From: Oscillospiraceae bacterium LCP25S3_E10
GTDB lineage: Bacteria > Bacillota > Clostridia > Oscillospirales > Acutalibacteraceae
DNA length: 24,000 nt
NCBI GenBank assembly: GCA_052117325.1
Contig: JBQKJJ010000002.1
Strand: one strand, 5' to 3'
Every line of letters starts with the position of its first letter. The stretch's first letter is position 1. Positions 609 to 15,174 of this stretch are shown here, one piece after another. Under the pieces are notes generated by a model, which saw only the letters and a list, made by a program, of their open reading frames with translations, did no database searches and had not been told where the DNA came from. Both the position numbers and the translations under genes were made by a program.

Positions 609-872
609 CTAAAATTGCTTTAACCAAATTATAAGTTCATCAAATAAAGATGTATTAAGTTCATAATAAACATAATTTTTTTCTTTTGTTTCAATAATGA
701 GGTCATTCTTTTTTAGTAAATTTAAATGATACGATAACGACGCGGGAGATATTCCAATTTTTTGGGCAATATCCCCTGCTATCATTTTATCCTTTTTTAA
801 TAGTATCAAAATGTCTCGTCGTGTTGAATCAGACAATGCTTTGAATGTACCCTGTAAAGACAATTGCTTCAA
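609..872 (-). CDS. ArsR-family winged-helix transcriptional regulator, SdpR-like autorepressor
   Basis: The 87-aa ORF contains FKALSDSTRRDILILL...IAGDIAQKIGISPASLSYHLNLLKK, a typical ArsR/SdpR HTH. The codon at 872-870 is TTG and directly abuts GGAGG (877-873). The in-frame TTG at 863-861, 9 nt after the RBS, is therefore the more likely start. Confidence 0.85.
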   Translation of the reverse strand: MKQLSLQGTFKALSDSTRRDILILLKKDKMIAGDIAQKIGISPASLSYHLNLLKKNDLIIETKEKNYVYYELNTSLFDELIIWLKQF

Positions 873-887
873 CCTCCAGTTACCAAC

Positions 888-911
888 CTATTTAAAAATA
901 TTTTTAAATAG
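888..911. promoter_or_regulatory. Perfect 24-bp palindrome CTATTTAAAAAT/ATTTTTAAATAG; candidate operator of the SdpR-like repressor
   Basis: Read directly from the sequence: the two 12-nt halves are exact reverse complements. It lies between the predicted promoter (923-951) and the RBS of the regulator gene. Confidence 0.4.
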
Positions 912-922
912 ATTGTGACCTT

Positions 923-951
923 ATTATAACAAGCCCTTAGAAAAAAATCAA
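923..951 (-). promoter_or_regulatory. Sigma-A type promoter for the sdpR/sdpI-like operon
   Basis: On the minus strand: TTGATT (951-946), a 17-nt spacer, then TATAAT (928-923). Confidence 0.5.
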
Positions 952-1237
952 TAAAATTTATTTAAAAAAATAACAGCACATTTTGTTCAGGTAATGCCCC
1001 ATATTATAAAAATTCGATAGCCTATAAAAATCAAAAAACACTTGAAATTAATTATGTATTAATAGATAGCTTTAAGCAATCACCCTCGCCACATAACCGC
1101 GGAAACCGCAAACCCAAATATATCGGGTTATTTCGTTGTATTATAAGTTTATAAAGCCTAATTATCACAATAATAACTTTGTATAAGCAGCATTATACAA
1201 AACAACATACCAAATTTACAAAATTTAAAATTTAGTA

Positions 1238-1266
1238 TTGACTTTATAAACAAAATGTAATATAAT
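1238..1266 (+). promoter_or_regulatory. Sigma-A promoter of tRNA-Leu
   Basis: TTGACT (1238-1243), a 17-nt spacer, then TATAAT (1261-1266). It lies about 35 nt upstream of the tRNA. Confidence 0.6.
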
Positions 1267-1301
1267 AATTTTTGTTCGGTAATGAACACGGTACACTATA
1301 T

Positions 1302-1386
1302 GCGGGTGTGGCGGAATTGGCAGACGCGCTAGATTTAGGTTCTAGTGTCAGCAGACGTGGGGGTTCAAGTCCCTTCACCCGCACCA
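1302..1386 (+). tRNA. tRNA-Leu (anticodon UAG), class II with long variable arm, CCA encoded
   Basis: Manual cloverleaf. The acceptor stem is GCGGGTG/CACCCGC. The anticodon stem is CTAGA/TCTAG with loop TTTAGGT, giving anticodon TAG. The variable arm is GTC-AGCA-GAC and the T-loop is TTCAAGT. The discriminator is A, followed by CCA (1384-1386). Confidence 0.9.
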
Positions 1387-1417
1387 GTGCGAAATTGTTC
1401 AAACGGAACTTTAAAAA

Positions 1418-1463
1418 GGGATTGCTGCAAACCGTTTGGTTTGGCTGCAATCCCTTTTTATTT
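1418..1463 (+). terminator. Rho-independent terminator after tRNA-Leu
   Basis: Imperfect long hairpin GGGATTGCTGCAAACC...GGTTTGGCTGCAATCCC, followed by TTTTTATTT. Confidence 0.6.
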
Positions 1464-1624
1464 GACCACCTTACCCTGCTACAGAACAATTCAAAATGCA
1501 GAGTGTTTTCACCATAAATTTTCTTTATTCCTTATCTAAGATTAGTCATATCTGTTTATATGCGGATACATTCTTAACAGCAACATTAAACAGTAAACTT
1601 TTAAAAAATATCAAAAATTAGGTG

Positions 1625-1653
1625 TTGACAATTTATTAATAAGCTGATATAAT
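1625..1653 (+). promoter_or_regulatory. Sigma-A promoter of the CAU-anticodon tRNA
   Basis: TTGACA (1625-1630), a 17-nt spacer, then TATAAT (1648-1653). Both hexamers match consensus perfectly. Confidence 0.65.
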
Positions 1654-1670
1654 AATTTGGCAATAGCAAC

Positions 1671-1747
1671 GGATCATTAGCTCAGTTGGTTAGAGCAACC
1701 GGCTCATAACCGGTAGGTCCCGGGTTCGAGTCCCTGATGATCCACCA
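1671..1747 (+). tRNA. tRNA with CAU anticodon: elongator tRNA-Met, or lysidine-modified tRNA-Ile2. It is not initiator-like. CCA is encoded.
   Basis: Manual cloverleaf. The acceptor stem is GGATCAT/ATGATCC, so positions 1 and 72 are paired. The D-arm is GCTC-AGTTGGTTA-GAGC. The anticodon stem is ACCGG/CCGGT with loop CTCATAA. The T-loop is TTCGAGT, with one C.U mismatch in the T-stem. There is no 3xG-C anticodon stem, so an initiator is unlikely. Confidence 0.85.
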
Positions 1748-1787
1748 AAAACCACCGTAATTTTGATTGAATTACGGTGGTTTTTTA
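1747..1787 (+). terminator. Rho-independent terminator after the tRNA(CAU)
   Basis: Stem AACCACCGTAATT/AATTACGGTGGTT with loop TTGATTG, followed by TTTTTT. Confidence 0.75.
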
Positions 1788-1862
1788 TATAGTTCATCTT
1801 GTGCACACTTTGTTTTTGTGATAAACTGATTGCGACAAATTGAAATTTATGGAGGCAACATA

Positions 1863-2060
1863 ATGGAAAACAAATGCAGTAAATGCGGAGGAGAATTAGT
1901 AACCGGTCGTTTGATGACCTCGTCGTGGCATGTTGAATTTATTCCGCTATGTGATGTAAAGAAGTTAAAGCGGAGACATATAGGTGTAATTTGCGACACC
2001 TGTGTTGAATGTGGAAACATTGAAAACATCCGTGCAGAAAATCCGGAAGCCTTGAAGTAA
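1863..2060 (+). CDS. Small hypothetical zinc-ribbon protein (65 aa)
   Basis: ATG at 1863 lies 7 nt after GGAGG (1851-1855). The sequence is MENKCSKCGGELVTG...VICDTCVECGNIEN, with two CxxC pairs. A terminator follows at 2176-2215. No family was recognised beyond the zinc-ribbon pattern. Confidence 0.45.
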   Translation: MENKCSKCGGELVTGRLMTSSWHVEFIPLCDVKKLKRRHIGVICDTCVECGNIENIRAENPEALK

Positions 2061-2175
2061 ATTTTGGTTTGACGGTATATTCCAAGTTCTTGCCCTGTTT
2101 GAGCAGGGGTGCAATTTCTCCGTATAAGGGTGCATTACACTCCACTTTCTATCAAAATTGTGATTTTGCTCCAAT

Positions 2176-2215
2176 AAAAGCATTTACTAAAAAAGGTAAG
2201 TGCTTTTATTTTTTG
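2176..2215 (+). terminator. Rho-independent terminator
   Basis: Stem AAAAGCATTTAC/GTAAGTGCTTTT (one G.U pair), followed by ATTTTTT. Confidence 0.55.
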
Positions 2216-2235
2216 TAAAACATAAAACCACTTTG

Positions 2236-2273
2236 CAAAAAAGGCTCATCACCTGTTTTACGGTGACGAGCCT
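2236..2273 (-). terminator. Terminator of the minus-strand rsmE-mtnN-pdxK unit (also hairpin-competent on the plus strand)
   Basis: Stem GGCTCATCACC (2243-2253) / GGTGACGAGCC (2262-2272) with one mismatch. On the minus strand it is followed by TTTTTT (complement of 2237-2242). It lies about 55 nt downstream of the stop at 2327. Confidence 0.6.
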
Positions 2274-2326
2274 TTTGCTTTGGTTGAAAAGTAATTTAAA
2301 CTTTAACAGTAATTATATTTTTTAAT

Positions 2327-3184
2327 CTACTGATTTTCAGTCTTTCGGTCATTAAGCATTTTTATTAACTTTGGCAACGCTTTTTCAAAATCTACACCAT
2401 ACCAGTGGTAATCCTTATTTTTCAAGGTTTCTCTGATACATTCCACTGTAAAATTAACGGCAATTTGCAGTGCGTCCTCCTTTGAAAAGCCCTCTTGCAT
2501 TAATGCACCTGTAAAGGCTGAGGCAAACACATCGCCTGTACCGTGAAAGCTGTATGGTAGCTTTTGGGAATAATACTCAAAAAAGCTGTCGTTTTCCCTA
2601 TCATAGGACATTACACCTACAGTGTGGCTGTCAAAACTAACACCTGTAATTGCACAGTAGCCACAACCCTGCTTGCTAAGCCTTACAAGAACATCTTTTA
2701 TAAATTCTTTGGTGTAATTATCCCCCACATAAGGAATATTCAGCATATAGCAAGCCTCTGTAAGGTTAGGCAAAATTACATCGGCACAGCCGCACAGTTT
2801 TGCCATTTCGTCAGCAAAATCCTGTGTAAAGCCCTTGTAAAGGTTTCCGTAATCTGCCATAGCCGGGTCCACAACAACAATATTTTTGTCGGTTTTAAAC
2901 TCCTTAAACACCTGTGACATTATTTTTATTTGCCGTACAGAACCCAAATAACCTGTGTATATAGCGTCAAAGTCTATTTGTTGTTTTCTAAGCATAGCAA
3001 CAATAGGTTCAATTTCATCGGTAAGGTCGTGAAAGGTAAAGTCTGAAAACGCCGTATGACAGGAAAGTACCGCTGTAGGTATAACAGACGCCTCTACGCC
3101 CATTGCCGAAATAACAGGCAGTGCCACAGTAAGAGAGCACTTTCCCACACAGGAAATATCCTGAATCGTAACAATTCGTTTCAT
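2327..3184 (-). CDS. pdxK: Pyridoxamine/pyridoxal kinase (ribokinase superfamily, PdxK/PdxY type)
   Basis: 285 aa. The N-terminus MKRIVTIQDISCVGKCSLTVALPVISAMG and the C-terminal GTGDVFASAF anion-hole motif are typical of pyridoxal-family kinases. Confidence 0.8.
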   Translation of the reverse strand: MKRIVTIQDISCVGKCSLTVALPVISAMGVEASVIPTAVLSCHTAFSDFTFHDLTDEIEPIVAMLRKQQIDFDAIYTGYLGSVRQIKIMSQVFKEFKTDKNIVVVDPAMADYGNLYKGFTQDFADEMAKLCGCADVILPNLTEACYMLNIPYVGDNYTKEFIKDVLVRLSKQGCGYCAITGVSFDSHTVGVMSYDRENDSFFEYYSQKLPYSFHGTGDVFASAFTGALMQEGFSKEDALQIAVNFTVECIRETLKNKDYHWYGVDFEKALPKLIKMLNDRKTENQ

Positions 3185-3196
3185 TGGCAGTACCTC

Positions 3197-3910
3197 TTAA
3201 TCAAAAAATGCCTTAATTACCTTTAATGTTTCGTCTGCCGCCAAAAACTTAAACTTTTCAAAATCCATATAGTCGTTGTCGTCTATAGTGTCTGATATTG
3301 CCCTTAGAACGGCAAAAGGAACATGGTTGCGGTAACATACCTGACCAATAGAGGCGCCCTCCATTTCGCAACAGTATGCGTCAAAATACTCGCCGATTTC
3401 CTTGCGGGCTACCTTACTGGAAATAAACTGCTCGCCTGAAGCAACAGTACCATAGTAAACATTTACATTTTTTAAGTCTTTTTTGCACTCTGCAATTATT
3501 TTATCGGTTAATTCCTTATCCGCCGGAATTTCCGTGATAATTTCATCGCTGAATTGTATAGTACCTCGTGGGTAAATTTCGTTATTCTCTTCGCCAATAT
3601 CTACCAAACACCTGTTGTCGTGGTTTACCACACGGCTTGAAACAACAATGTCGCCTATTTTAAGCTGTGTACTTAATGCACCTGCAACGCCGCTGTTAAT
3701 AATAGCTGACGGCTTGTACTGCATAATCATAGCCTGTGTACACATAGCCGCATTAACCTTGCCTACGCCGCACTGTGCCAAAACACAGTCTTTGCCGTTT
3801 ATACTGCCTTTATAAAAGGTTATTTGGCTTATTTCGGTTTCTTCAATATTGTCCATTAATTTTTTAACGCCTTCAATTTCAATATCCAACGCACCTATAA
3901 TTCCCAGCAT
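3197..3910 (-). CDS. mtnN: 5'-methylthioadenosine/S-adenosylhomocysteine nucleosidase
   Basis: 237 aa with MLGIIGALDIEIE..., CGVGKVNAA and EMEGASIGQVC motifs characteristic of MtnN/Pfs. Confidence 0.9.
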   Translation of the reverse strand: MLGIIGALDIEIEGVKKLMDNIEETEISQITFYKGSINGKDCVLAQCGVGKVNAAMCTQAMIMQYKPSAIINSGVAGALSTQLKIGDIVVSSRVVNHDNRCLVDIGEENNEIYPRGTIQFSDEIITEIPADKELTDKIIAECKKDLKNVNVYYGTVASGEQFISSKVARKEIGEYFDAYCCEMEGASIGQVCYRNHVPFAVLRAISDTIDDNDYMDFEKFKFLAADETLKVIKAFFD

Positions 3911-3936
3911 AACAATCTCCTTACTTTTTATATCTG

Positions 3937-4662
3937 CTAACCAAGATTTCCCGTTTCATACATTATAACAGAAAGTGCCGTAAGCGGCGCAGTTTCTGCC
4001 CTTAGCACACGCTTGCCCAGGGTAGCAGCACTACCGCCTTTGCTTACCACAGAATCCACCTCTGTTTGCTCAAAACCACCCTCTGAGCCAATAAATATAT
4101 TAACATTTTGGGCTGTTTTGTCAATAACATTTCCTATATGCTCACCGCCGCACTCATAAAAAATTATATTACAGCAGCTATCCTCAAGGCTTGCTACGGC
4201 CTGTTTAAAGGTTTGTGCCTGTTTAACCTGCGGTATAACTCCCCTGCGTGACTGCTGTGCGGCCTGCAGTGCAATTTTTTGCCAGCGTTCCACTTTTTTT
4301 CTCAAGGACTTTTCGTCCGGCCTTGAAATACACCGTGCCGAAATAACCGGCACTATGCTTGTTACCCCCAGTTCTACTGCTTTTTGTACAATAAAATCCA
4401 TTTTATCTCCCTTTGGCAATGCCTGATAGAGGGTTACTGCCACATTGGGTTCGTTTTGGCACTTAAACTTGCTATTAACCTTAACAGTGATATTTCCCGG
4501 CACTATATTTTCTATAGTTGTACTGTACTGCATACCACAGCTGTCTACAAGGGTTATTTCCTCGCCGATTTTCATTCGCAAGGACTTTTCAATGTGTTTT
4601 GCGTTTTCTCCTGTTATAGTGTAAGTATCTTCATTAAATGGCTCTGTAAAAAACCATGCCAT
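3937..4662 (-). CDS. rsmE: 16S rRNA (uracil1498-N3)-methyltransferase RsmE
   Basis: The ORF track gives 3937-4713. I prefer ATG 4662 (MAWFFTEPF...), which is preceded by GGGGTGA and gives the typical RsmE N-terminus (M-x-x-FF). PUA-like N-domain and SPOUT C-domain motifs are present (IGSEGGF, RAETA). Confidence 0.85.
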   Translation of the reverse strand: MAWFFTEPFNEDTYTITGENAKHIEKSLRMKIGEEITLVDSCGMQYSTTIENIVPGNITVKVNSKFKCQNEPNVAVTLYQALPKGDKMDFIVQKAVELGVTSIVPVISARCISRPDEKSLRKKVERWQKIALQAAQQSRRGVIPQVKQAQTFKQAVASLEDSCCNIIFYECGGEHIGNVIDKTAQNVNIFIGSEGGFEQTEVDSVVSKGGSAATLGKRVLRAETAPLTALSVIMYETGNLG

Positions 4663-5403: not shown

Positions 5404-7080
5404 TTATTGGTTTACATCAAGAATTGCGCCTGTGTTGCCGGATGTAACCATTGCGGCATATCTAGCCAAATAGCCTGTTTTAATTCTTGGCTCTTTCGGC
5501 TGCCACTCTTTTCTTCTTTCTGCAAGCTCTTCGTCTGAAAGCTTAACATTAATCTTGTTTGCCATAATATCTATAGAGATTATATCGCCGTCCTTAATTA
5601 ATGCAATAGGACCGCCTACTGCTGCTTCAGGAGATACATGACCGATAGCTGCACCTCTGGTAGCGCCCGAAAAACGACCGTCTGTAATAAGTGCAACTGT
5701 GCTTCCTAAGCCTCTGCCCATAATAGCCGATGTAGGGTTAAGCATTTCTCTCATACCAGGGCCGCCCTTTGGTCCCTCGTAGCGAATTACAACAACATCG
5801 CCATCGTGGATTTGGTCGCCCATTATAGCTTTCATAGCGTCCTCTTCACAGTCAAATACTCTGGCAGGACCTTCGTGTACAAGCATTTCAGGAGCAACCG
5901 CACTTCTTTTAACAACACATGAATCAGGAGCAATATTACCTCTTAGAACTGCTATACCACCTGTTTTGCTGTAAGGGTTATCAACAGGTCTAATAACCTC
6001 CGGGTTCTTATTTTTGCAAAGAGCAATATTTTCGCCTACAGTTTTACCTGTAACTGTCATACAATCTGTATGTAAAAGTCCAAGCTTATTAACCTCGTTC
6101 ATAACAGCGTAAACGCCGCCTGCCTCATTAAGGTCTTCCATATGGTGAGGGCCTGCAGGAGCAAGATGACATAGGTTAGGTACTTTATCACTAATTTTAT
6201 TTGCAATATCTAGGTTAATTTCTATGCCTGCCTCGTGTGCAATAGCCGGTAGGTGCAGCATACTGTTTGTACTGCAGCCAAGAGCCATATCAATAGTAAG
6301 AGCATTTTCAAATGCCTCTTGAGTCATAATGTCACGAGGCTTAATGTCCCTCTTTAGCAGCTCCATAATCTGCATACCTGCCTTTTTAGCAAGGCGGATT
6401 CTCTCTGAATATACAGCCGGAATAGTACCGTTGCCACGCAAGCCCATACCAAGAACTTCTGTAAGGCAGTTCATAGAGTTTGCTGTGTACATACCTGAAC
6501 ATGAACCGCATGTTGGACAGGTTTTTTCTTCATATTCTGTCAGCTCTTCCTCTGAAATCTTGCCCGCTGCATAAGCACCAACAGCTTCAGAAGCAGCCGA
6601 AAAACTAACCTTGCAGCCGTTTACCGTACCTGCAAGCATAGGACCGCCGCTTACGAAAATTGTAGGAATATTCATTCTGGCAGCTGCCATTAACAAACCC
6701 GGAACATTCTTGTCGCAGTTTGGAATCATAACCAATGCGTCAAAGCCGTGTGCCATTGTCATACACTCTGTAGAATCAGCTATTAGGTCACGGGTTACAA
6801 GTGAATATTTCATTCCCTGGTGTCCCATAGCGATTCCGTCACATACTGCTATAGCCGGGAAAACAGCCGGAGTACCGCCTGCCATAGCTACACCAAGCTT
6901 TACAGCCTCTGTAATCTTGTCAATATTCATATGTCCCGGAACAATTTCATTAAATGAACTTACAATACCTATAAGGGGTCTTTTCTGCTCCTCTGCTGTA
7001 AATCCAAGAGCATTAAAAAGTGTTCTGTGTGGTGCATTTTGAGCGCCGTTTTTTATTGCGTCACTTCTCATCTCATACAA
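5404..7080 (-). CDS. ilvD: Dihydroxy-acid dehydratase
   Basis: 558 aa with RSDAIKNG..., [17 protein letters not shown] and TDGRFSG motifs of IlvD. ATG 7071 (MRSD...) is an alternative start. Confidence 0.95.
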
Positions 7081-7165: not shown

Positions 7166-7194
7166 ATTATAAAATTAATAATTGTTACTGTCAA
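7166..7194 (-). promoter_or_regulatory. Sigma-A promoter of ilvD
   Basis: On the minus strand: TTGACA (7194-7189), a 17-nt spacer, then TATAAT (7171-7166). Both hexamers match consensus. The leader is only about 80 nt, too short for a T-box. Confidence 0.65.
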
Positions 7195-7241
7195 GAAGTA
7201 TTGCCGCATAAGTAAAGAATGTTTTAATAGCTTTTGCAATT

Positions 7242-7273
7242 AAAAAAGCAAGCAACGCTACAGTGCTGCTTGC
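7242..7273 (-). terminator. Terminator of the cohesin/dockerin gene cluster
   Basis: Stem GCAAGCA (7248-7254) / TGCTTGC (7267-7273) plus inner pairs. On the minus strand it is followed by TTTTTT (complement of 7242-7247). Confidence 0.6.
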
Positions 7274-7313
7274 CCTTGTGAAAACTCACATTTTTATTTT
7301 TGTTAAGTTTTTA

Positions 7314-8009
7314 TTACTCTAATATTAATGCCCTTAGCATCGTAACATCGTTAGCATCAAACTTACCGTCTTTATTCAGGTCATTTTTTGCTATTTCCTC
7401 TGCGGTCATATCATCTGCATGAACATATTTACCGGCTATTATTAAATAGTCAGAAACTGTTACAGCATTGTCACCATCTAAGTCGCCAACCAAAGTTTCC
7501 GGCTGAGCTGGTGCTTCTGTTTCAGGGGTAGAAACAACTTCTAATTTCTCTGTAAATTTGTCTGTAATTTGCTCAAAATTATTATTAACTATATCTGTAA
7601 TACTGTAGTTAAATGGCAGTTCATCTGCCGCAGCGTCCTCGTTAAGTACAAACTCTACAGCAGCAACAAGCTGTCCGCCGCTTATCATATAATCCATTCT
7701 TCCCAATGCGGCACAAATTCTCAAATTGTCCGATTCGTCCTTAACTTGAGTAATAGCATCATTTAGGAAGCTGTATGTTGTTGACTGATTGAAAGACAGC
7801 TTATCGGAATTATATTTAACTATAAAGTCAATACCGCAAAAATCGCTGTCAACATCTGAAGGCAAATATAGTGAGTATCTAAATACTGTGCCTGCCTTAT
7901 ATTGGCCTTTTTCAGGATTGACCTGGGCTGATGCAGTCACTGCAAACAAAGATGTTACTATAATCAGCACACCCACAAATGACGCTAATAACTTTTTAAC
8001 TTGATTCAT
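7314..8009 (-). CDS. Secreted single-cohesin-like module protein with C-terminal dockerin (adaptor-scaffoldin-like)
   Basis: 231 aa. The signal peptide is MNQVKKLLASFVGVLIIVTSLFAVTASA. A cohesin-like beta module spans about aa 29-160 (GTVFRYSLYLP...GIDFIVKYNSDKLSF...VAAVEFVL). An acidic Pro-rich linker is TPETEAPAQPE. The dockerin (aa 174-231, nt 7317-7490) has two Ca-binding loops, DLDGDNAVTVSD and DLNKDGKFDAND. Confidence 0.75.
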   Translation of the reverse strand: MNQVKKLLASFVGVLIIVTSLFAVTASAQVNPEKGQYKAGTVFRYSLYLPSDVDSDFCGIDFIVKYNSDKLSFNQSTTYSFLNDAITQVKDESDNLRICAALGRMDYMISGGQLVAAVEFVLNEDAAADELPFNYSITDIVNNNFEQITDKFTEKLEVVSTPETEAPAQPETLVGDLDGDNAVTVSDYLIIAGKYVHADDMTAEEIAKNDLNKDGKFDANDVTMLRALILE

Positions 8010-8100
8010 TCTGTTCAGTTCCTTTCAAATAACGAATTTTTAAAAATTCATTATTACTTTTGTTATTCTTCCAACCTACAAAACCTAACGGAACTAATAC

Positions 8101-8817
8101 TTAATCACTGACGCTGTCTGCCTGCTTTTGTTTTTTCTTTTTATATACAATAGCAACTACCACAAGTACCACTGCTGCTGCGGCAACACCTACAATAGCC
8201 CATATCATAAACGGGTTACTGTTGTTTGTGTTGTTGTCATTTACAACGGATGCGGTATCTGCAGTTGCAGAGTCCTGCTTTATTGCGTCCATACCGTCTA
8301 CAGGATTTACGATTTCACCGTCATATTTGCCCTTTTCAATTTGTTCATTTATTGAATAGTCAGATGAGGTCATATCCTTTAAATCTGTATCGTACATTTC
8401 GGACACAGCTATTTTTATTTCATTATCTGAAGCCTTTTCTTTTACCGTAAAAGATGCTGAAATAAGTAGCTTTTCTTCTTTAAAATCAAAACCCTTTGCG
8501 GCGTCAATGGCTGCAAATTTTATTGACCCTGTTTTTTCGGAATTGGCAATGGTTTGTCCCAGATTTGGTACATTAATACTGCTTTTATCCAATTCCAAAG
8601 AATTGCTGTCGTACTTAATCTCAGCATTTATGCCGGAACAGTTTTTGTCCGCCTTTAGTTTCACAGTAAATGTAACTGTATCTCCCTCGTTAAATTCCTT
8701 TGAATTAACGGTAACAGTATTTGCGGCAAAGGCCGTAATCACACTCATAGCAATAATTACGGTAGCTGCTGCAAAGCAAGTTATTATTCGACTGGCTATA
8801 TGGCTGTTTTTCCTCAC
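8101..8817 (-). CDS. Membrane-anchored single-cohesin-like protein (candidate anchoring scaffoldin)
   Basis: 238 aa, with GTG start 8817 placed 9 nt after GGAGG (8832-8828). It has a signal peptide/N-terminal hydrophobic segment and a cohesin-like module at about aa 33-145 (GDTVTFTVKLKADKNCSGINAEIKYDSNSLEL...ISASFTVKEKA). A Ser/Asn/Asp-rich spacer follows. The C-terminal TM helix is FMIWAIVGVAAAAVVLVVVAIVY (nt 8143-8211), followed by a KKKKQKQ tail. I saw no LPXTG motif. Confidence 0.7.
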   Translation of the reverse strand: MRKNSHIASRIITCFAAATVIIAMSVITAFAANTVTVNSKEFNEGDTVTFTVKLKADKNCSGINAEIKYDSNSLELDKSSINVPNLGQTIANSEKTGSIKFAAIDAAKGFDFKEEKLLISASFTVKEKASDNEIKIAVSEMYDTDLKDMTSSDYSINEQIEKGKYDGEIVNPVDGMDAIKQDSATADTASVVNDNNTNNSNPFMIWAIVGVAAAAVVLVVVAIVYKKKKQKQADSVSD

Positions 8818-9112
8818 TATAGAATTCCTCCATACTGATTATATAAATGATATTTTTTCTACGCACTGTTTAATCGTCTATTTTTTTGATAAGCCCACAA
8901 ATTCAGCAAGCAATAAAGTGAAATATTGATATGCTTACATTAACTCTGTAAAAAATAAAAATCTCTTTTGCCACACATCTGCAAAGACTTAACTTTACAT
9001 ATACATACACCGGCCCCTGCTACCTGTAAATATTCGTTTACAACAAAAGGCCTTGGTAAGATTTTCAGCTTGCCTTAATAACTAAATAACAATATCATAA
9101 AATAAACGAAAT

Positions 9113-9141
9113 AGCAAGCACCACAGATTGCAGTGCTTGCT
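9113..9141 (-). terminator. Terminator (possibly partial) after the large scaffoldin gene
   Basis: Stem AGCAAGCAC (9113-9121) / GTGCTTGCT (9133-9141). On the minus strand it is followed by a T-rich ATTTCGTTTATTTTAT. Confidence 0.5.
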
Positions 9142-9166
9142 AAGACAAATTGGATTTACCGATTAA

Positions 9167-12100
9167 TTAAGATATCAGTTTCTTCAAAGCTGAAATATCG
9201 CTCATATTAAATCTGCCGTCACCGTTTATATCAGCCGCCTCAAGCTGCTCGGCTGTAATGTGGTCTATCTTTAGATACCAAGAACAAATTACTGTGTAGT
9301 CACTCATTGTTACACTGCCGTCATTGTCCAGGTCGCCAAGAAGTCTCTTAGGCTCTACACGAACATAGCTTTCAAAAGCTGAACCGTTTTTCGGCTGGTA
9401 CTCATCGTCAACATATGTTAAGCTGCTGCCGTTAATATCGCAAAGCTCTCTCATTCTGTATGAAAGTGTAGTTGTACAATCCTCTTTAGCAATAAACTGC
9501 AAGCAAATTAGCTTTTGAACTGTTCCTGTGTTGTAGTTTAAGCCCTTTGACAAATCATCAATGCTCTTAACATTGTTATATACTGCCTCACCAGGAATCT
9601 GTGTTGAGCTTAGGAATATATCACCAGGGAATACGCTTGGTTTTACAGCGCTGTCACCCAGTGCGTAATCTATCTGTGCAGTACCTGATGCAAAGCCGTT
9701 ATTCTCGGCAAATTCTTTGTTGATTTCAAGCTTGTCGTTATCATAGAACATATCTACTGTCCAACCTGAAATATCAATACCTGTTGAAGGTAATACCAAT
9801 TCTACCCAATAATCAACCTTGTCACCCTTCTTAACAGTTACCTCTGTTGCAGCTGTAGTTGGTCTCTGTGTAGGCTGCTCTGTAGGAGTTGTAGGTGTAG
9901 TTGGTGTTGTAGGTGTTGTAGGTGTAGTTGGTGTAGTTGGAGTTGTTGGAGTTGTAGGTGTAGTTGGTGTTGTTGGTGTTGTAGGCTGTTCGCTGGAAAC
10001 GATCTTATAATCCTGACCGAACTTAGCACCGTCTGCAGCCTGGTATGTACCGTCAATATATGCATTGTCTAGGTCTACATCGCACATTTCTCTTAGTCTG
10101 TAGCTTAGGTTAATTGTGCCTGTTTCCTTAGCTGTGTACTGTACGCATATTAGCTTCTGAGTAGAACCTGTGTTTAGTCCCAATGAAGAATGTACAGCGC
10201 TTACAAATGAAACTCTTGCCTTTGTATCCTTAATGTCAAGCATACTTCCGCCAGGAAGTGCTGCAGGTGTTGTAGTGTTGCCTATTGCATAATCAATAGC
10301 TGCTGTACCGCAAGCATAACCTGCTGTTGCAAATGAAGAATCATATTCAAGCTTATTGCTGTCATATAGGAAGTCAACAACCCAGCCTGATACATCTTTA
10401 CCGCTTTTTGGAATATTTACTTCTGCCCAGTAAGCAACCTTGTCGCCCTTCTTAACAGAAATTTCCTTAGCTGCTGTTGTTGGAGCTGTCAGCCATTCGT
10501 CTGTTGATGGATCTGTTGGTGTTGTTGGGTCTGTTGGTGTTTCGCCGCTTACAACAGCACTGTTGCTGCTTGAAACCTTTGTTGTTACAGGTTGTCCTGT
10601 CTGTGAGTTATACTGGTTTTCAGCGTCAAGACCAATAGCCTCTTTCATCTTATAAGAAATAGTAGCTGTTCCTGCTTTCTTAGCTACAAATGAAACAGTA
10701 ATTAGGTTCTTCTGTGTTGTAAAGTCGTAAGTTGTAGTAGGTGTACCGATACCAACTGTAGAAATCAGTCCGTCTTCCTCGGTTCTCTGCTGTGTCATTC
10801 CTGAAATGTTAGGGAATGATACTGAATTTACTGTAAGTAGTGATGAATCATAGTTAATATCTGTTCTAAAGCCGTAAAGCTTTTCAGCAAACTTAAAGTC
10901 AACCTTGTAAGTTACTGTGTCGCCGGCTTTAAATGTAACCTTTGTTGAACCTGTTGTTGCATCCTCTGTGCCACTCTGAACAACAGCGTTCTGTGAAATT
11001 GACAAACCGCTTACAGGCTTAGCATTTACTACAAGGTCGTTTTCGTTATCGTCAATCATTTCGTTGATAGTGTAGCTAATCTTGTATGTGCCTGCCTTCT
11101 TAGCTGTAAAGCGTACTGTCTGAATTGTAGTATTGCTTTCTGCTGTATAGCAGTCATTTGCAGGTGCAAGTGCAATAGCACTGATCTTGCCTGCAGTTGT
11201 AGTATTAACTATCTCTGTACCCTTGTTTGAACCAAGAGTATCTACACCGTCTTTACTGTATGTAGTATCAAGTGCAAAAGCAGAAGCGTCGTAATTTGTT
11301 GTTATGTTATAAGAACCAATCTTCTTTGATGTTTTTGCATCTACAGTAAATGTAACTGTATCTCCTGCCTTTACAGTAACAGATTTTTCACCGGTTACCT
11401 GTGTTCCAGGAGTGGTTGGTGTAGTAGGTGTCTGTGTTGGAGTAGTTGGAGTAGTTGGAGTAGTTGGAGTGGTTGGTGTAGTAGGTGTCTGTGTTGGTGT
11501 TGTTGGTACTTGTGTTGGATCTGTTGGGTGGATGTTTGTACCTACATAAGCAAACGGAGCTGTAACATTGTCCTCGTCGCTCTTCTCTTTACTGTTCTTC
11601 TCATGGGAGGCACCTGCATCACTTTGGTCTGCATTGTCATTCATTGACAAATCATAAGGCAGACAGTCCATACCGGACTTACCAAATGTGGCAATGTTCA
11701 TAATGCCGACACCTTTAGATTCAATGTCGCTCTTTGTAACGCCAAGAATTGAAAGCGGAATAGACATCTCATAGTGGAAGTCCATTCCATCGCTGTTGTG
11801 GCCCTTTGTATTAAAGTCAACCCAAGCAGCACTTTGGTTGCACATATCGCCTATGACTCTGTTGTGACTTTGACCATAACCGCCGTCAATGCCGTAAACA
11901 TTTTTGCTGACTATACCATCACCATATTTGAAGTTAATACCTGCTGTTGATGAATTGTAAACTTCCTTTGGATTAAGGCCTGTGCTGTCACCTGAGTATA
12001 CAAAAGGTCCGTTTGAACCGTTTGTAGAAATTGCAATAAGTCTGTTAAAGCTTCTGTCAATAGTAATACCTGAATCCCAAATAGTACCTGATGTTTGCAG

Positions 12101-12628
12101 CTTACCGCTGTTTCCTATTGCGTCAGACTTACCTGTATCAATCGCAATAAAGAAAGGTAAATTCTGATTTTGGTACAAATGACCCTGTGTTAACGGATAG
12201 TCAGCAGCAGGAGCAACAACATCCTGAACATTTGTCATTTCCCACATTAGGTACAGGTTATTGTCGTCCCAAGCACCGTACATAGCGTACATATCAATAG
12301 GTACCTCGTGCATTGAATCATCACGATATACTCTTGGGTCATCGTTTGCTGTACCCTGAGCAATAAGCATTGAGCTATCCCAGTCAGAAATGTCTCCATC
12401 TATAGTTATGGTCTTATTTTTACCAAAACCTGTGCCATTTGTGGAGTAGTAGCTGGCTAATGAAGATGAGCTTGCATTTGCACTGCTCAAAGCTGTTGGA
12501 CCGACCTTTGCTGAGTCGGCACTTTGCTGGTTTGTGCTTGTAGCTGCTGTTGCAGGAACAACGCACATTGACGCAACCATTAAAGCCGCAAGAACTGAGC
12601 TTACAACTTTACGCTGGTGTTTTGCCAT
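9167..12628 (-). CDS. Large secreted scaffoldin-like protein: signal peptide, ~300-aa N-terminal domain, four cohesin-like modules separated by Thr/Pro linkers, C-terminal dockerin
   Basis: 1153 aa, with ATG 12628 placed 8 nt after GGAGG. The signal peptide is MAKHQRKVVSSVLAALMVASMCVVPATA. Module motifs are VTVKAGDTVTFTVDA...NYDASAFAL, VTFKAGDTVTYKVDF...NYDSSLLTV, ISVKKGDKVAYWAEV...LYDSNKLEY and VTVKKGDKVDYWVEL...FYDNDKLEI. The dockerin is LLGDLDNDGSVTMSDY...ADINGDGRFNMSDISALKKLIS. Confidence 0.8.
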   Translation of the reverse strand: MAKHQRKVVSSVLAALMVASMCVVPATAATSTNQQSADSAKVGPTALSSANASSSSLASYYSTNGTGFGKNKTITIDGDISDWDSSMLIAQGTANDDPRVYRDDSMHEVPIDMYAMYGAWDDNNLYLMWEMTNVQDVVAPAADYPLTQGHLYQNQNLPFFIAIDTGKSDAIGNSGKLQTSGTIWDSGITIDRSFNRLIAISTNGSNGPFVYSGDSTGLNPKEVYNSSTAGINFKYGDGIVSKNVYGIDGGYGQSHNRVIGDMCNQSAAWVDFNTKGHNSDGMDFHYEMSIPLSILGVTKSDIESKGVGIMNIATFGKSGMDCLPYDLSMNDNADQSDAGASHEKNSKEKSDEDNVTAPFAYVGTNIHPTDPTQVPTTPTQTPTTPTTPTTPTTPTTPTQTPTTPTTPGTQVTGEKSVTVKAGDTVTFTVDAKTSKKIGSYNITTNYDASAFALDTTYSKDGVDTLGSNKGTEIVNTTTAGKISAIALAPANDCYTAESNTTIQTVRFTAKKAGTYKISYTINEMIDDNENDLVVNAKPVSGLSISQNAVVQSGTEDATTGSTKVTFKAGDTVTYKVDFKFAEKLYGFRTDINYDSSLLTVNSVSFPNISGMTQQRTEEDGLISTVGIGTPTTTYDFTTQKNLITVSFVAKKAGTATISYKMKEAIGLDAENQYNSQTGQPVTTKVSSSNSAVVSGETPTDPTTPTDPSTDEWLTAPTTAAKEISVKKGDKVAYWAEVNIPKSGKDVSGWVVDFLYDSNKLEYDSSFATAGYACGTAAIDYAIGNTTTPAALPGGSMLDIKDTKARVSFVSAVHSSLGLNTGSTQKLICVQYTAKETGTINLSYRLREMCDVDLDNAYIDGTYQAADGAKFGQDYKIVSSEQPTTPTTPTTPTTPTTPTTPTTPTTPTTPTTPTTPTEQPTQRPTTAATEVTVKKGDKVDYWVELVLPSTGIDISGWTVDMFYDNDKLEINKEFAENNGFASGTAQIDYALGDSAVKPSVFPGDIFLSSTQIPGEAVYNNVKSIDDLSKGLNYNTGTVQKLICLQFIAKEDCTTTLSYRMRELCDINGSSLTYVDDEYQPKNGSAFESYVRVEPKRLLGDLDNDGSVTMSDYTVICSWYLKIDHITAEQLEAADINGDGRFNMSDISALKKLIS
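9170..9343 (-). other. Dockerin module of the scaffoldin
   Basis: There are two EF-hand-like loops, DLDNDGSVTMSD and DINGDGRFNMSD. The LLGDLDND codons were verified at 9343-9320. Confidence 0.75.
9350..9859 (-). other. Cohesin-like module 4 (about aa 924-1093)
   Basis: See module 3. Confidence 0.55.
9881..9985 (-). repeat. Imperfect 9-bp tandem repeat (about 11.7 copies) encoding (Pro-Thr-Thr)11-Pro-Thr linker
   Basis: Codon-by-codon reading of 9881-9985 gives 11 x PTT followed by PT, with synonymous variation between copies (ACA/ACT, CCA/CCT). Confidence 0.9.
9995..10483 (-). other. Cohesin-like module 3 (about aa 716-878)
   Basis: Paralogous to module 4. Compare KKGDKVAYWAEV with KKGDKVDYWVEL, SGWVVDFLYD with SGWTVDMFYD, and QKLICVQYTAKE...LSYRLREMCD with QKLICLQFIAKE...LSYRMRELCD. 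Confidence 0.55.
10550..10963 (-). other. Cohesin-like module 2 (about aa 556-693)
   Basis: See module 1. It shares the motifs KAGDTVT and NYD-S. Confidence 0.55.
10994..11398 (-). other. Cohesin-like module 1 (about aa 411-545)
   Basis: Boundaries come from the flanking linker and a Gly/Ser/Thr spacer. It is paralogous to module 2 (FTAKKAGTYKISY vs FVAKKAGTATISY). Confidence 0.55.
11411..11497 (-). repeat. Exact 30-bp direct repeat (11411-11440 and 11468-11497, 57-bp period) inside the first Thr/Pro linker
   Basis: AGTGGTTGGTGTAGTAGGTGTCTGTGTTGG occurs twice on the plus strand. It encodes the PTQTPTTPTT segments of the linker spanning 11405-11527. Confidence 0.85.
11543..12457 (-). other. 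Scaffoldin N-terminal domain (about aa 58-362), function unknown; possibly carbohydrate-binding (CBM9/DOMON-like motif)
   Basis: The TITIDGDISDWD ... YGAWDDNNLYLMWEMTN ... FFIAIDTG pattern resembles the D-G-x-x-x-x-W / W-D-x-x-x-L-Y signature of CBM9-like sugar-binding modules. This is motif-level recognition only. Confidence 0.3.
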
Positions 12629-12899
12629 TAAAATTCCTCCTTTTTCTTCTCTATGTAAGCATATCTATGCACTTTTTATTATAAAGAACTTCAATAAAAA
12701 TTACAATGGTTTTTATCATAGCAAAATCAAAATCGTATATTATAACAAAAAACACTGGAAAATTTTATACAGGATAACCTCTAAATTTATGTCTTTACAA
12801 AGAAAAAAGACACGCAACAGTTAGATTTGTAGGCAATATCAAAAAGCTATCTATATTTATATGCAAGTTTACGAACAATTTTAGCAACATCTGTATAAT

Positions 12900-12984: not shown

Positions 12985-13998
12985 TTATTCCTCATAACCC
13001 TTTGGATTGTTAGACTGCCATCTCCAAGAATCCTTGCACATATTCTCCAAGGTTTCTTCAGCCCGCCAGCCAAGAACATCTCTTGCCTTTGTCGGGTCTG
13101 CATAGCACTCTGCAATGTCGCCGTCTCTTCTAGGCTTAATTACATAAGGTATCTTAATATCGTTGGCTTTTTCAAAAGCTTTAACAATATCCAAAACACT
13201 GTAGCCTATGCCTGTACCAAGGTTGAATATTTCTGTACCCTTGTTTTTGTGGGCATATTCTATTGCCTTTACATGTCCCTTTGCCAAATCAACTACATGT
13301 ATATAGTCTCTTACGCCTGTACCGTCGTGAGTTGGGTAATCGTTTCCGAACACTCCCAGCTGAGGCAGCTTGCCGATAGCAACCTGTGTGATATACGGCA
13401 GCAAATTGTTTGGAATACCTGTAGGGTCTTCGCCTATTCTGCCGCTTGGGTGAGCACCTATTGGGTTAAAGTACCTTAGCAATACTACCGACAAATTTTT
13501 GTTAGCTGCAGCAGCGTCTGTTAAAATTTGCTCTATCATTAGTTTTGTCCAACCATATGGGTTAGTACAGCCTGTTTTCATACCCTCTACAAGAGGCACT
13601 CTTTCAGGCACTCCGTAAACTGTAGCCGACGAACTAAATACAAAATTGTTTACATTATATTTTGCCATAGCCTCCAGCAAAGTAAGCGTAGTATCAAGGT
13701 TATTTCTATAGTACATAAGCGGCTTTGCAACAGACTCACCTACAGCCTTGAAGCCTGCAAAATGAATTACTGCGTCAAAGTTCTCTTTTGCAAACATACT
13801 GTCAACCTTTTCTTTGTCTGCAACATCTATATTATAGAAAGGAATATCCTGCCCTGTAAGCTCCTTTAGTCTTTCAAGCACTGCCGGCTTACTGTTTGAA
13901 AGGTCGTCTGCAATAACTGCCTTGTGGCCTGCCTTTATAAGCTCAATGCAAGTGTGGCTGCCGATAAATCCGGCGCCGCCTGTAAGTAAAATTTTCAT
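12985..13998 (-). CDS. galE: UDP-glucose 4-epimerase
   Basis: 337 aa with MKILLTGGAGFIGSH (Rossmann GxxGxxG) and an S..YG.TK-type catalytic region (NPYGWTKLM). The length is typical of GalE. Confidence 0.95.
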   Translation of the reverse strand: MKILLTGGAGFIGSHTCIELIKAGHKAVIADDLSNSKPAVLERLKELTGQDIPFYNIDVADKEKVDSMFAKENFDAVIHFAGFKAVGESVAKPLMYYRNNLDTTLTLLEAMAKYNVNNFVFSSSATVYGVPERVPLVEGMKTGCTNPYGWTKLMIEQILTDAAAANKNLSVVLLRYFNPIGAHPSGRIGEDPTGIPNNLLPYITQVAIGKLPQLGVFGNDYPTHDGTGVRDYIHVVDLAKGHVKAIEYAHKNKGTEIFNLGTGIGYSVLDIVKAFEKANDIKIPYVIKPRRDGDIAECYADPTKARDVLGWRAEETLENMCKDSWRWQSNNPKGYEE

Positions 13999-14391: not shown

Positions 14392-14964
14392 TTACTCCCG
14401 TGTACCGGCTTTATTTTTGTACTTTCCCAATATCAGTAAGGCAGAAAGCACAAACCACGCATATGAAATGCAAAAAGCCATACTATATTTGGAAGTTAAA
14501 ACAAGCAGCAACATTATACCGAGTTCAATTAATAAAATAATAGCGCTGCGCCTCCTGTATTTTATAACTTCATCTTTGTTAATATATTTATAAACACTAT
14601 CTACAGGTGATAAAACAAATATAGCAGGCAGCCCCACTACCGCACACAGGATAATAACCCAGGTAAAGTCGGTAAAAAAGGTCAGCAATAAATTTAATGT
14701 TGTAATAATACAACAAGATATTGCCAGACAAGAAATAAAATTCTTTGCATGGAAGCCACCGGCATACTGCCTCAGCACTGCAAATGTCCCAAAAAATACT
14801 ATTGTCTCCAGCACATTTCCAAATAATATGCCGATTATGAGGAATATGCAAAATGAAAAAACCATTTCCTCAATTAGTTGTAAGCCAAAGCAATATACCT
14901 TCCGCTCGTTTTCCTTTATAATGTTGGCTTCCACCATATACGCAACAATTTTATCTCTTAACAT
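14392..14964 (-). CDS. agrB: AgrB-family accessory gene regulator B (membrane endopeptidase that processes AgrD)
   Basis: Multi-TM protein with LRQYAGGFHAKNFISCLAIS. The His and Cys are 7 residues apart, the same spacing as the catalytic His/Cys pair of S. aureus AgrB. The N-terminus MLRDKIVAYMVEANIIKENERKVYCFGLQ matches the clostridial AgrB pattern. I therefore prefer ATG 14964 over the ORF-track start 14979. Confidence 0.85.
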   Translation of the reverse strand: MLRDKIVAYMVEANIIKENERKVYCFGLQLIEEMVFSFCIFLIIGILFGNVLETIVFFGTFAVLRQYAGGFHAKNFISCLAISCCIITTLNLLLTFFTDFTWVIILCAVVGLPAIFVLSPVDSVYKYINKDEVIKYRRRSAIILLIELGIMLLLVLTSKYSMAFCISYAWFVLSALLILGKYKNKAGTRE

Positions 14965-15112
14965 TCTTGAACATCTCAATTTCCTTTGGTGCTACAGGCT
15001 GATGAGCCAAAATACTTGATGTTGTATTCGCACTGTTGATGATTATCTTTTCTACTGCACTCTTTGTGATTTTGCATAGGTTTGTTTTTAGTGATGCCTT
15101 TAGTGATTTCAT
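14951..15112 (-). CDS. agrD: AgrD-like cyclic autoinducing peptide precursor (53 aa); not in the ORF track
   Basis: My own translation starts at ATG 15112-15110, after GGGAGGTGAGAGAT. It reads MKSLKASLKTNLCKITKSAVEKIIINSANTTSSILAHQPVAPKEIEMFKNVKR with stop TAA at 14953-14951. It has an amphipathic N-terminus and a short core. The charged tail, beginning HQPxxPKE, resembles the AgrB-recognition tail recalled from clostridial AgrD peptides. It overlaps the agrB start by 14 nt. Confidence 0.7.
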   Translation of the reverse strand: MKSLKASLKTNLCKITKSAVEKIIINSANTTSSILAHQPVAPKEIEMFKNVKR

Positions 15113-15174
15113 ATCTCTCACCTCCCTCAACTAGATTTTACATCTTAAAAATAGAAATAACAATACAGTTTGAC

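Follow-up and report, generated by a model that had tools for sequence, protein, structure and literature searches.

A CBM74-bearing scaffoldin and a membrane-anchored cohesin at a candidate amylosome-like locus of an Acutalibacteraceae bacterium

Organization of the Locus

The locus described here lies in a stretch of 24,000 nucleotides of contig JBQKJJ010000002.1 (assembly GCA_052117325.1) from Oscillospiraceae bacterium LCP25S3_E10, a member of the Acutalibacteraceae; this whole stretch is referred to as the window. It consists of three consecutive genes on the minus strand. Gene 1 (9167..12628) encodes a primary scaffoldin of 1153 amino acid residues, gene 2 (8101..8817, with a GTG start and GGAGG upstream) an anchoring protein of 238 residues, and gene 3 (7314..8009) an adaptor of 231 residues. 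They are flanked by ilvD (5404-7080) and by a gene for a galE-type epimerase (12985-13998). A preliminary description of this DNA, made from the sequence without database searches, had placed three genes of a cohesin/dockerin cluster here, and the list of open reading frames agrees with it exactly in position, order and strand. The layout also recalls the sca-type clusters to which it referred: a scaffoldin with several cohesins ends in a dockerin, the anchor has one cohesin, and a small protein would serve as cohesin-dockerin adaptor. Each protein was said to begin with a signal peptide, and all three N-termini, read from the sequence, are indeed basic, then hydrophobic, and then show an Ala-X-Ala site.

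The three genes probably encode the core framework of a cohesin-dockerin complex that resembles an amylosome and is directed at starch. In the literature consulted, the degradation of resistant starch in the human gut is ascribed to a few species with Ruminococcus bromii as the primary degrader, and only the amylosome of that species has been studied. Modules were assigned here with the Pfam gathering cut-offs of 24.1 bits for Cohesin (PF00963) and 22.9 bits for Dockerin_1 (PF00404). A local scan of all window open reading frames with hidden Markov models (HMMs) found no further cohesin or dockerin gene, and an NCBIfam scan of the three proteins gave nothing meaningful. As the preliminary description had stated, no glycoside hydrolase gene is present in the window.

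The Scaffoldin and Its Starch-Binding Module

The gene 1 protein begins with a signal peptide and a Ser-rich spacer, followed by a module of family CBM74, a Pro/Thr-rich linker, cohesin 1, cohesin 2 and a linker. Divergent cohesin 3, another Pro/Thr-rich linker, divergent cohesin 4 and a dockerin complete the chain. The signal peptide (residues 1-28, cut at ...VPATA/AT; 12545..12628, minus strand, as are all module coordinates below) was read from the translation and is conserved in relatives. The linker that follows the CBM74 (11417..11533) is made of TPTTP repeats in the translation and lies on tandem DNA repeats at 11415-11518. The linker between modules 3 and 4 (9854..10012) contains 12 TPTTP-type units and coincides with a tandem repeat of period 9 in 12 copies at 9881-9990; Clostridium sp. 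CAG:964, the nearest species representative, has TEAPTVAP repeats at this position instead.

Cohesin 1 (residues ~405-545; 10994..11416) and cohesin 2 (residues ~553-690; 10559..10972) are canonical and are recognized by PF00963 with 34.6 bits (E 2.6e-8) and 37.1 bits (E 4.5e-9), respectively, while the whole 1153-residue protein scores 58.4 bits with Pfam Cohesin. The dockerin (residues ~1094-1153; 9170..9349) scores 45.1 bits with PF00404 and matches dockerins in the PDB. Its calcium-loop repeats, read from the alignment, are DLDNDGSVTMSD and DINGDGRFNMSD. The dockerins of genes 1 and 3 both have two Ca-binding loops of 12 residues with Asp or Asn at positions 1, 3 and 5 and Asp at position 12.

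The CBM74 module occupies residues ~57-365 (11534..12460) and is ~310 residues long. A phmmer search of the PDB aligned residues 27-440 of the gene 1 protein with the CBM74 of R. bromii Sas6 (PDB codes 7uwv and 7uwu) at an E-value of 3.8e-55. The Pfam scan gives no match for this module. This explains why the region was left blank by the domain scan and in the preliminary description, in which the first ~400 residues of the large protein, holding the CBM74, were not described.

The ligand-binding residues were mapped by the phmmer alignment, with the Sas6 residues taken from bioRxiv 10.1101/2022.11.20.514607. In that work, mutation of W373 or H289 of Sas6 abolishes or strongly reduces starch binding. 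Both residues are identical in gene 1 (W373 corresponds to W184 and H289 to H107), as are E290 (E108), N403 (N206) and K556 (K349). Two changes are conservative: F326 is replaced by Y144, which is the commonest variant in the family, and D549 by E343. Four peripheral hydrogen-bonding residues of Sas6, R336, S338, Y524 and K464, differ in gene 1, and the loop 374-384, which is specific to close relatives of Sas6, is missing, as it is in most CBM74 modules.

Many CBM74 modules, carried by amylases or by dockerin proteins, share 65-78% identity with that of gene 1. In related organisms, CBM74 is found on amylases that combine GH13 and CBM26 and on Sas6-like dockerin proteins, and the modules reported so far belong to amylases or to non-catalytic dockerin proteins. 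In full-text searches of the open-access literature and preprints, no report of a CBM74 on a protein with cohesins was found. The searches returned only the Sas6 paper and an unrelated survey of carbohydrate-active enzymes (CAZymes), and found no functional literature on CAG:964. Since gene 1 begins with a starch-specific CBM74, starch is the indicated target. The module is the strongest pointer to the substrate, which, as far as the sequence allows a judgment, is most likely starch; the earlier statement that the substrate could not be deduced from the window is therefore not borne out.

The Divergent Cohesins

Modules 3 (residues ~715-872; 10013..10486) and 4 (residues ~926-1090; 9359..9853), designated here as X-type, are 44% identical to each other, and module 4 ends about 10 residues before the dockerin. 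Neither gives a Pfam cohesin match even at E<=10, and a profile of 15 homologues of the two modules found no solved cohesin in the PDB by sequence. Profile comparison gave a different result. When the 15 divergent modules were aligned by hhalign with 58 canonical cohesins of the same protein family, the match had a probability of 99.5% and an E-value of 1.4e-22 over 137 columns at 21% identity, while control profiles of CBM74 and dockerin scored 0.1-0.3%. The AlphaFold2 model of module 3 has a pLDDT of 90.6 and a pTM of 0.87. In a Foldseek search of the PDB, its first 27 matches were all cohesins (TM 0.43-0.57), the best being cohesin 1 of R. bromii Sca5 (7uvg; TM 0.52, E 1.4e-4). Module 4 was included in the alignment used for the model and in the hhalign comparison.

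The hhalign match and the cohesin-only structural matches indicate that, on profile and model evidence, the two modules belong to a divergent subfamily of cohesins, for which dockerin binding is only putative. The four cohesin-like modules of the preliminary description are thus accounted for by two Pfam cohesins and two divergent ones, and its C-terminal dockerin was recovered as well. The same description had proposed that failure to score as a cohesin in HMM searches should count against cohesin identity. Such a rule would wrongly reject modules 3 and 4, cohesin homologues that Pfam misses. Because half of the gene 1 cohesins and the CBM74 are missed by Pfam, HMM-based censuses undercount and mislabel systems of this kind. 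Among the related scaffoldins with a dockerin, most have a divergent-type module ~10-15 residues ahead of it, and a structural role of the module in this position is a possible alternative to docking.

These modules also bear on the question of whether gene 1 assembles enzymes at all. The complex could be mainly a starch adhesin that tethers the cell to starch granules, with cohesins that serve as spacers or bind non-catalytic partners only. The position of the CBM74, at the far end of a long chain interspersed with Pro/Thr linkers, would suit such a role, modules 3 and 4 depart from canonical cohesins by an insertion of ~20 residues, and R. bromii has non-catalytic adherence proteins in Sas6 and Sas20. 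However, two of the cohesins are canonical and are conserved at 85-90% among strains. The number of cohesins in relatives varies from 3 to 6 by module duplication, which is expected for docking sites and not for spacers. Adhesion and enzyme assembly are, moreover, compatible with each other, and a purely adhesive function is considered quite improbable.

The Membrane Anchor

The gene 2 protein consists of a signal peptide, one cohesin, a polar stalk of ~45 residues, a C-terminal transmembrane (TM) helix and a Lys-rich tail. The cohesin (residues ~34-157; 8347..8718) scores 32.0 bits with PF00963 (E 1.7e-7). The helix (residues ~203-225, FMIWAIVGVAAAAVVLVVVAIVY; 8143..8211) has a Kyte-Doolittle mean of 2.96 over 19 residues. 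It is 23 residues long and hydrophobic, is followed by KKKKQK, and is present in the same form in all relatives. One cohesin and a C-terminal TM anchor had been predicted for this protein, and both were recovered.

Neither gene 2 nor any of its relatives has an LPXTG-like motif next to the helix, which indicates that the protein is a membrane-anchored and not a sortase-anchored cohesin. A conserved VNPxxG was considered as a sortase signal and rejected, since it lies 25-40 residues before the helix, which is too far. All anchor proteins have a conserved G-(E/T)-(I/V)-V-(N/D)-P-x-x-(G/Y) at the end of the cohesin (residues ~165-175; window ~8290-8325); it lies 25-40 residues ahead of the helix, again too distant for a sortase signal.

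The Adaptor

Gene 3 encodes a signal peptide, a probable cohesin, a short linker and a dockerin. The dockerin (residues ~173-231; 7317..7493) scores 31.5 bits with PF00404; its repeats, read from the alignment, are DLDGDNAVTVSD and DLNKDGKFDAND, and it is 44% identical to the gene 1 dockerin. The reading of this protein as a cohesin joined to a dockerin therefore stood for the dockerin, while the cohesin is only probable, its Pfam score being below the cut-off.

The evidence for this divergent cohesin (residues ~29-160; 7530..7925) comes from HMMER searches and from a model. An exhaustive HMMER search of 1.84 billion representatives gave seven matches, two of which, P0123 (E 2.8e-6) and P0127 (E 2e-4), align over regions called as cohesin by Pfam. 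The first 47 PDB matches of the AlphaFold model (pLDDT 74.7) were all cohesins; the input alignment of this model included true cohesins. By hhalign, the similarity of the N-terminal domain to the cohesins of the locus itself is weak. Relatives are rare. Among 5.8 billion proteins the gene 3 protein has one other cluster only (P0121, 98% identical), and a metagenome scan found no relative. A search of the 5.8-billion-protein collection with one profile built from both dockerins returned a single fragment of 95 residues, which carries no information on the cargo. The N-terminal domain of gene 3 is, on these grounds, probably a divergent and nearly orphan cohesin.

Proposed Assembly

The modules suggest how a complex could be built. 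Gene 1 would be the secreted primary scaffoldin, whose N-terminal CBM74 would bind the helical alpha-glucan of starch granules. Its four cohesins would recruit dockerin proteins encoded elsewhere in the genome, with GH13 amylases, pullulanases and starch-binding proteins as the presumable cargo, and its C-terminal dockerin would plug the assembly into another cohesin. Gene 2 would be the cell anchor, a type-I membrane protein that holds a single cohesin outside the cell on its stalk. This cohesin would most likely receive the gene 1 dockerin or that of gene 3, either of which the preliminary description had proposed as its partner. Gene 3 would act as a small cohesin-dockerin adaptor of the ScaC kind, which could extend or re-route the assembly.

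Related Genomes and Strain Variation

Clostridium sp. CAG:964 (L001) shares 99.5% amino acid identity with the window in ilvD and 97% in galE, and the flanks of the two loci are 91-99% identical in DNA. The three-gene set is not constant even at this distance. CAG:964 has a scaffoldin of 855 residues without CBM74, with different linker repeats, and it has the anchor gene and lacks gene 3. The first difference is an indel of 966 bp with the CBM74 (window 11404-12369) against 60 bp (L001 10254-10313), and the second is one of 919 bp with gene 3 (window 7226-8144) against 102 bp (L001 13590-13691). Of the CBM74, the CAG:964 scaffoldin retains a decayed stub comprising the first ~25 residues, which indicates that the absence of the module there is due to deletion. 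A recent gain of the CBM74 in the window lineage was considered and rejected, since distant relatives carry the module and CAG:964 keeps the stub.

Two long metagenomic contigs of the CAG:964 type (L082 and L083) agree with this arrangement. Some CAG:964-type strains, the second contig among them, contain a recent tandem duplication of divergent cohesin 3 (L083 10001-13153; P0001-P0003), which gives five modules and 1037-1050 residues; the number of scaffoldin cohesins thus varies within the species. An assembly gap, seen as a run of X in the translation, lies in divergent cohesin 3 of CAG:964 (L001 ~11560-11610), so that module 3 identities relative to L001 are slightly uncertain.

The window version recurs in two Logan assemblies only, which come from runs of one accession series. 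These are L080, a contig of 10.4 kb with 97.7% nucleotide identity and a gene 1 copy that is 99% identical in amino acids, and L081, a 1.8-kb fragment with gene 3. The CBM74 and gene 3 segments are both present in the window and in L080 and are both missing in L001, L082 and L083. The module and the adaptor gene are, therefore, a strain-level polymorphism in which the two are present or absent together.

All three genes are under purifying selection. Relative to L080, dN/dS is 0.086 for gene 1, 0.079 for gene 2 and 0.135 for gene 3, the last with 10 synonymous and 5 non-synonymous differences; values of 0.08-0.14 indicate real genes and not chance open reading frames. In the comparison with CAG:964, gene 1 has a value of 0.375 and gene 2 one of 0.24, while ilvD and galE have values of 0.006-0.06, and the scaffold genes diverge much faster than their neighbors.

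Beyond the species, a CBM74 and cohesins are combined in one protein in 25 of the 79 species-representative loci. The distant carriers are Acutalibacteraceae and Ruminococcus-labelled metagenome-assembled genomes, mostly from rumen or animal gut according to their record names. In their scaffoldins a single chain carries a CBM74 and cohesins together with a divergent cohesin and a dockerin, and in six of these distant loci a gene for a small TM-anchored cohesin lies 3' of the scaffoldin gene. The order of scaffoldin and then small TM-cohesin gene is found in ten loci in total (L001, L002, L005, L006, L007, L008, L011, L080, L082 and L083), and the anchor gene follows directly in all of them except L008. 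The pairing of genes 1 and 2 is therefore conserved.

Several observations weigh against the proposed starch-directed assembly. The closest genomes keep the scaffold and have lost the CBM74, so the scaffold can persist without the module. Neither the 24-kb window nor the flanking DNA of close relatives contains a gene for a dockerin-bearing enzyme. Another genus of the Acutalibacteraceae, Limousia, is predicted to use cohesin-dockerin complexes for the degradation of mucin (PMC12997984). The Pfam Cohesin score of gene 3, 18-19.5 bits (E 0.0012 at 19.5 bits), is under the 24.1-bit cut-off, and its model, having true cohesins in the alignment, is supportive and not independent evidence. With its ~45 residues, the stalk of the gene 2 protein may be hardly long enough to span the wall of a Gram-positive cell. 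Finally, the scaffoldin of one relative, L006 (RUG158, 814-4653; also P0019 and P0020), combines a CBM74 with five canonical cohesins, ends in a divergent cohesin and lacks a dockerin, yet the gene for a TM-anchored cohesin follows it.

The first three of these points would fit a generic scaffold with non-amylolytic cargo, such as enzymes that degrade mucin, protein or plant cell walls, on which the CBM74 is an optional adhesion module of some strains. However, in nearly all of the more distant relatives the scaffoldin has a CBM74, so that this is the ancestral state, and the remnant in CAG:964 points to loss and not to gain. In addition, CBM74 has been reported only from starch-active proteins. 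A generic scaffold is accordingly regarded as unlikely, and a scaffold directed to starch is preferred.

The last point concerns the wiring of the complex, as does the divergence of the modules that would have to interact. The gene 1 dockerin is the most diverged module, with a dN of 0.22 and 64-74% amino acid identity among variants of the same species group, and residues 10-11 of its first calcium loop vary between MS, YA and LA when the window sequence is compared with L001, L082 and L083. The gene 2 cohesin, by contrast, stays 91-98% identical among variants and 91-92% identical to CAG:964-type copies. The two do not look like a tightly co-evolving pair, as far as can be read from the sequences, which also counts against the proposed wiring; a mirror-tree comparison of their identities, limited to a few pairs, was uninformative. 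It could be that the gene 1 dockerin binds its own cohesins or that of gene 3 to form polymeric or cell-free complexes, while gene 2 takes the dockerins of enzymes or of gene 3. The near-constant anchor beside a diverged dockerin, the arrangement in L006, and the co-occurrence of gene 3 with the window-type dockerin would all agree with this, and self-binding is documented for R. bromii Amy4 (Amy4/Sca1). None of the present results speaks directly against it, and the conserved position of gene 2 next to gene 1 is compatible with both wirings. We give this alternative the least credence of those considered, and favor the gene 2 cohesin as the probable receptor of the scaffoldin.

Transcription Signals and Neighboring Genes

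Transcription signals were sought by consensus scans only. A promoter-like site, TTGTAA-17-TATAAT, with 10 of 12 consensus matches lies upstream of gene 1 (12678..12706, minus strand). The number of promoter-like sites in the region is not above that in shuffled sequences, and the site is a consensus match only. A terminator-like hairpin with a 14-bp stem and a T-rich tail follows gene 1 (9112..9142, minus strand), and another follows gene 3 (7238..7277, minus strand; RNA fold -17.3 kcal/mol, z -2.97) with a U run behind it. A strong terminator-like hairpin is also found 3' of galE, and 91 bp separate genes 2 and 3. Judged from these sequence signals, gene 1 is likely to be transcribed alone and genes 2 and 3 together. 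Upstream of ilvD, directly behind the gene 3 hairpin, there is a perfect sigma-70 consensus, TTGACA-17-TATAAT (7166-7194, minus strand).

The other genes of the window are of the housekeeping kind and encode a thiamine/pyridoxal-type kinase, a nucleoside phosphorylase, an RsmE-type methyltransferase and MGMT. Genes for AgrB, a MacB/FtsX ABC transporter and DAHP synthase are also present. The AgrB homologue (14392-14979, minus strand; Pfam E 3e-41) is preceded by a small open reading frame (14951-15130, minus strand) of 53 residues as called in L080 and at most 59 in the window, which may be an AgrD-like peptide precursor. Such a pair would make up a cassette for quorum sensing, located a short distance upstream of galE and of the scaffoldin locus. 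Two tRNA genes (1302-1383 and 1671-1744, plus strand; Rfam 54 and 68 bits) lie at the left end of the window, where GC is low, and a small ArsR-like helix-turn-helix open reading frame is found at 609-872 (minus strand).

Significance

Three features of the locus are unusual: the scaffoldin itself bears the CBM74, some of the cohesins belong to a subfamily overlooked by Pfam, and the anchor is of the membrane type and not a sortase signal. It can be suggested, with less assurance than for the starch-targeting role of the locus itself, that a multi-cohesin scaffoldin with CBM74 paired with a TM-anchored cohesin is a widespread amylosome architecture of Acutalibacteraceae from gut and rumen, of which no description was found in the literature searched. 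It would combine a build like that of CipA, and unlike that of the R. bromii system, with cohesins that standard HMMs miss, and within one gut species the linked presence or absence of CBM74 and adaptor would define strains able or unable to attach the complex to granules of resistant starch. A second amylosome design would widen the set of candidate primary degraders of starch and would offer a natural blueprint for starch-directed designer scaffolds. The clean deletion of ~300 CBM74 residues together with the adaptor gene, in strains whose housekeeping genes are 97-99.5% identical, would provide a natural loss-of-function contrast. The two alleles could be screened in metagenomes from diet interventions.

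Comparison with Known Systems

The functionally closest system is the amylosome of R. bromii (Sca1/Amy4, Sca2-Sca5, Sas6 and Sas20), although the source organism belongs to a different lineage, the CAG:964 group. Both have cohesins and dockerins, starch-binding modules on a scaffoldin, a component with CBM74, and cell-bound anchors. In R. bromii, Sca5 has X25 modules and two cohesins, and the CBM74 is supplied by Sas6, a dockerin protein of its own that also contains CBM26 and BIg domains. At the present locus the CBM74 is part of a scaffoldin with four cohesins and a C-terminal dockerin, so that cohesins and starch-binding module, both expected of an amylosome scaffoldin, are found in one protein. 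Another expected feature of an amylosome, the sortase signal of R. bromii Sca2 and Sca5, is replaced here by a plain TM helix. The best structural matches of the divergent cohesin are the Sca5 cohesins, while no similarity to solved R. bromii cohesins was detected at the sequence level.

In architecture, gene 1 resembles a primary scaffoldin of the CipA type. CipA of Clostridium thermocellum has a substrate-targeting CBM, several cohesins, and a C-terminal dockerin closely preceded by a non-canonical module. However, the CBM of CipA is an internal CBM3 for cellulose, while that of gene 1 is an N-terminal CBM74 for starch. The module before the dockerin is an Ig-like X module in CipA and is cohesin-like here, and the anchor at this locus has no SLH domains.

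The sca cluster of Ruminococcus flavefaciens likewise groups genes for a primary scaffoldin (ScaA), which has several cohesins and a C-terminal dockerin, an adaptor (ScaC) and a single-cohesin anchor (ScaE), and such a clustering is found at the present locus. ScaE is sortase-anchored, however, and the substrate of the sca system is the plant cell wall. A counterpart of ScaB or CttA is missing here, and the adaptor gene is strain-specific, nearly orphan and missing in the nearest genomes.

Within the same family, the Limousia 'mucinolysome' contains scaffoldins with several cohesins, and an anchor with one cohesin is the predicted partner of their C-terminal dockerins (PMC12997984). This system differs from the present locus in its sortase anchor, its mucin-active cargo and the absence of CBM74. 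With respect to anchoring, single-cohesin scaffoldins with a C-terminal TM helix have been predicted in H. luporum, C. cibarium and Lachnoclostridium sp. MSJ-17 (PMC11557425), and the same mode of anchoring is predicted for gene 2. Those anchors are isolated predictions in cellulosome-type or unassigned systems, whereas here the anchor gene is a conserved partner of a CBM74 scaffoldin across the clade.

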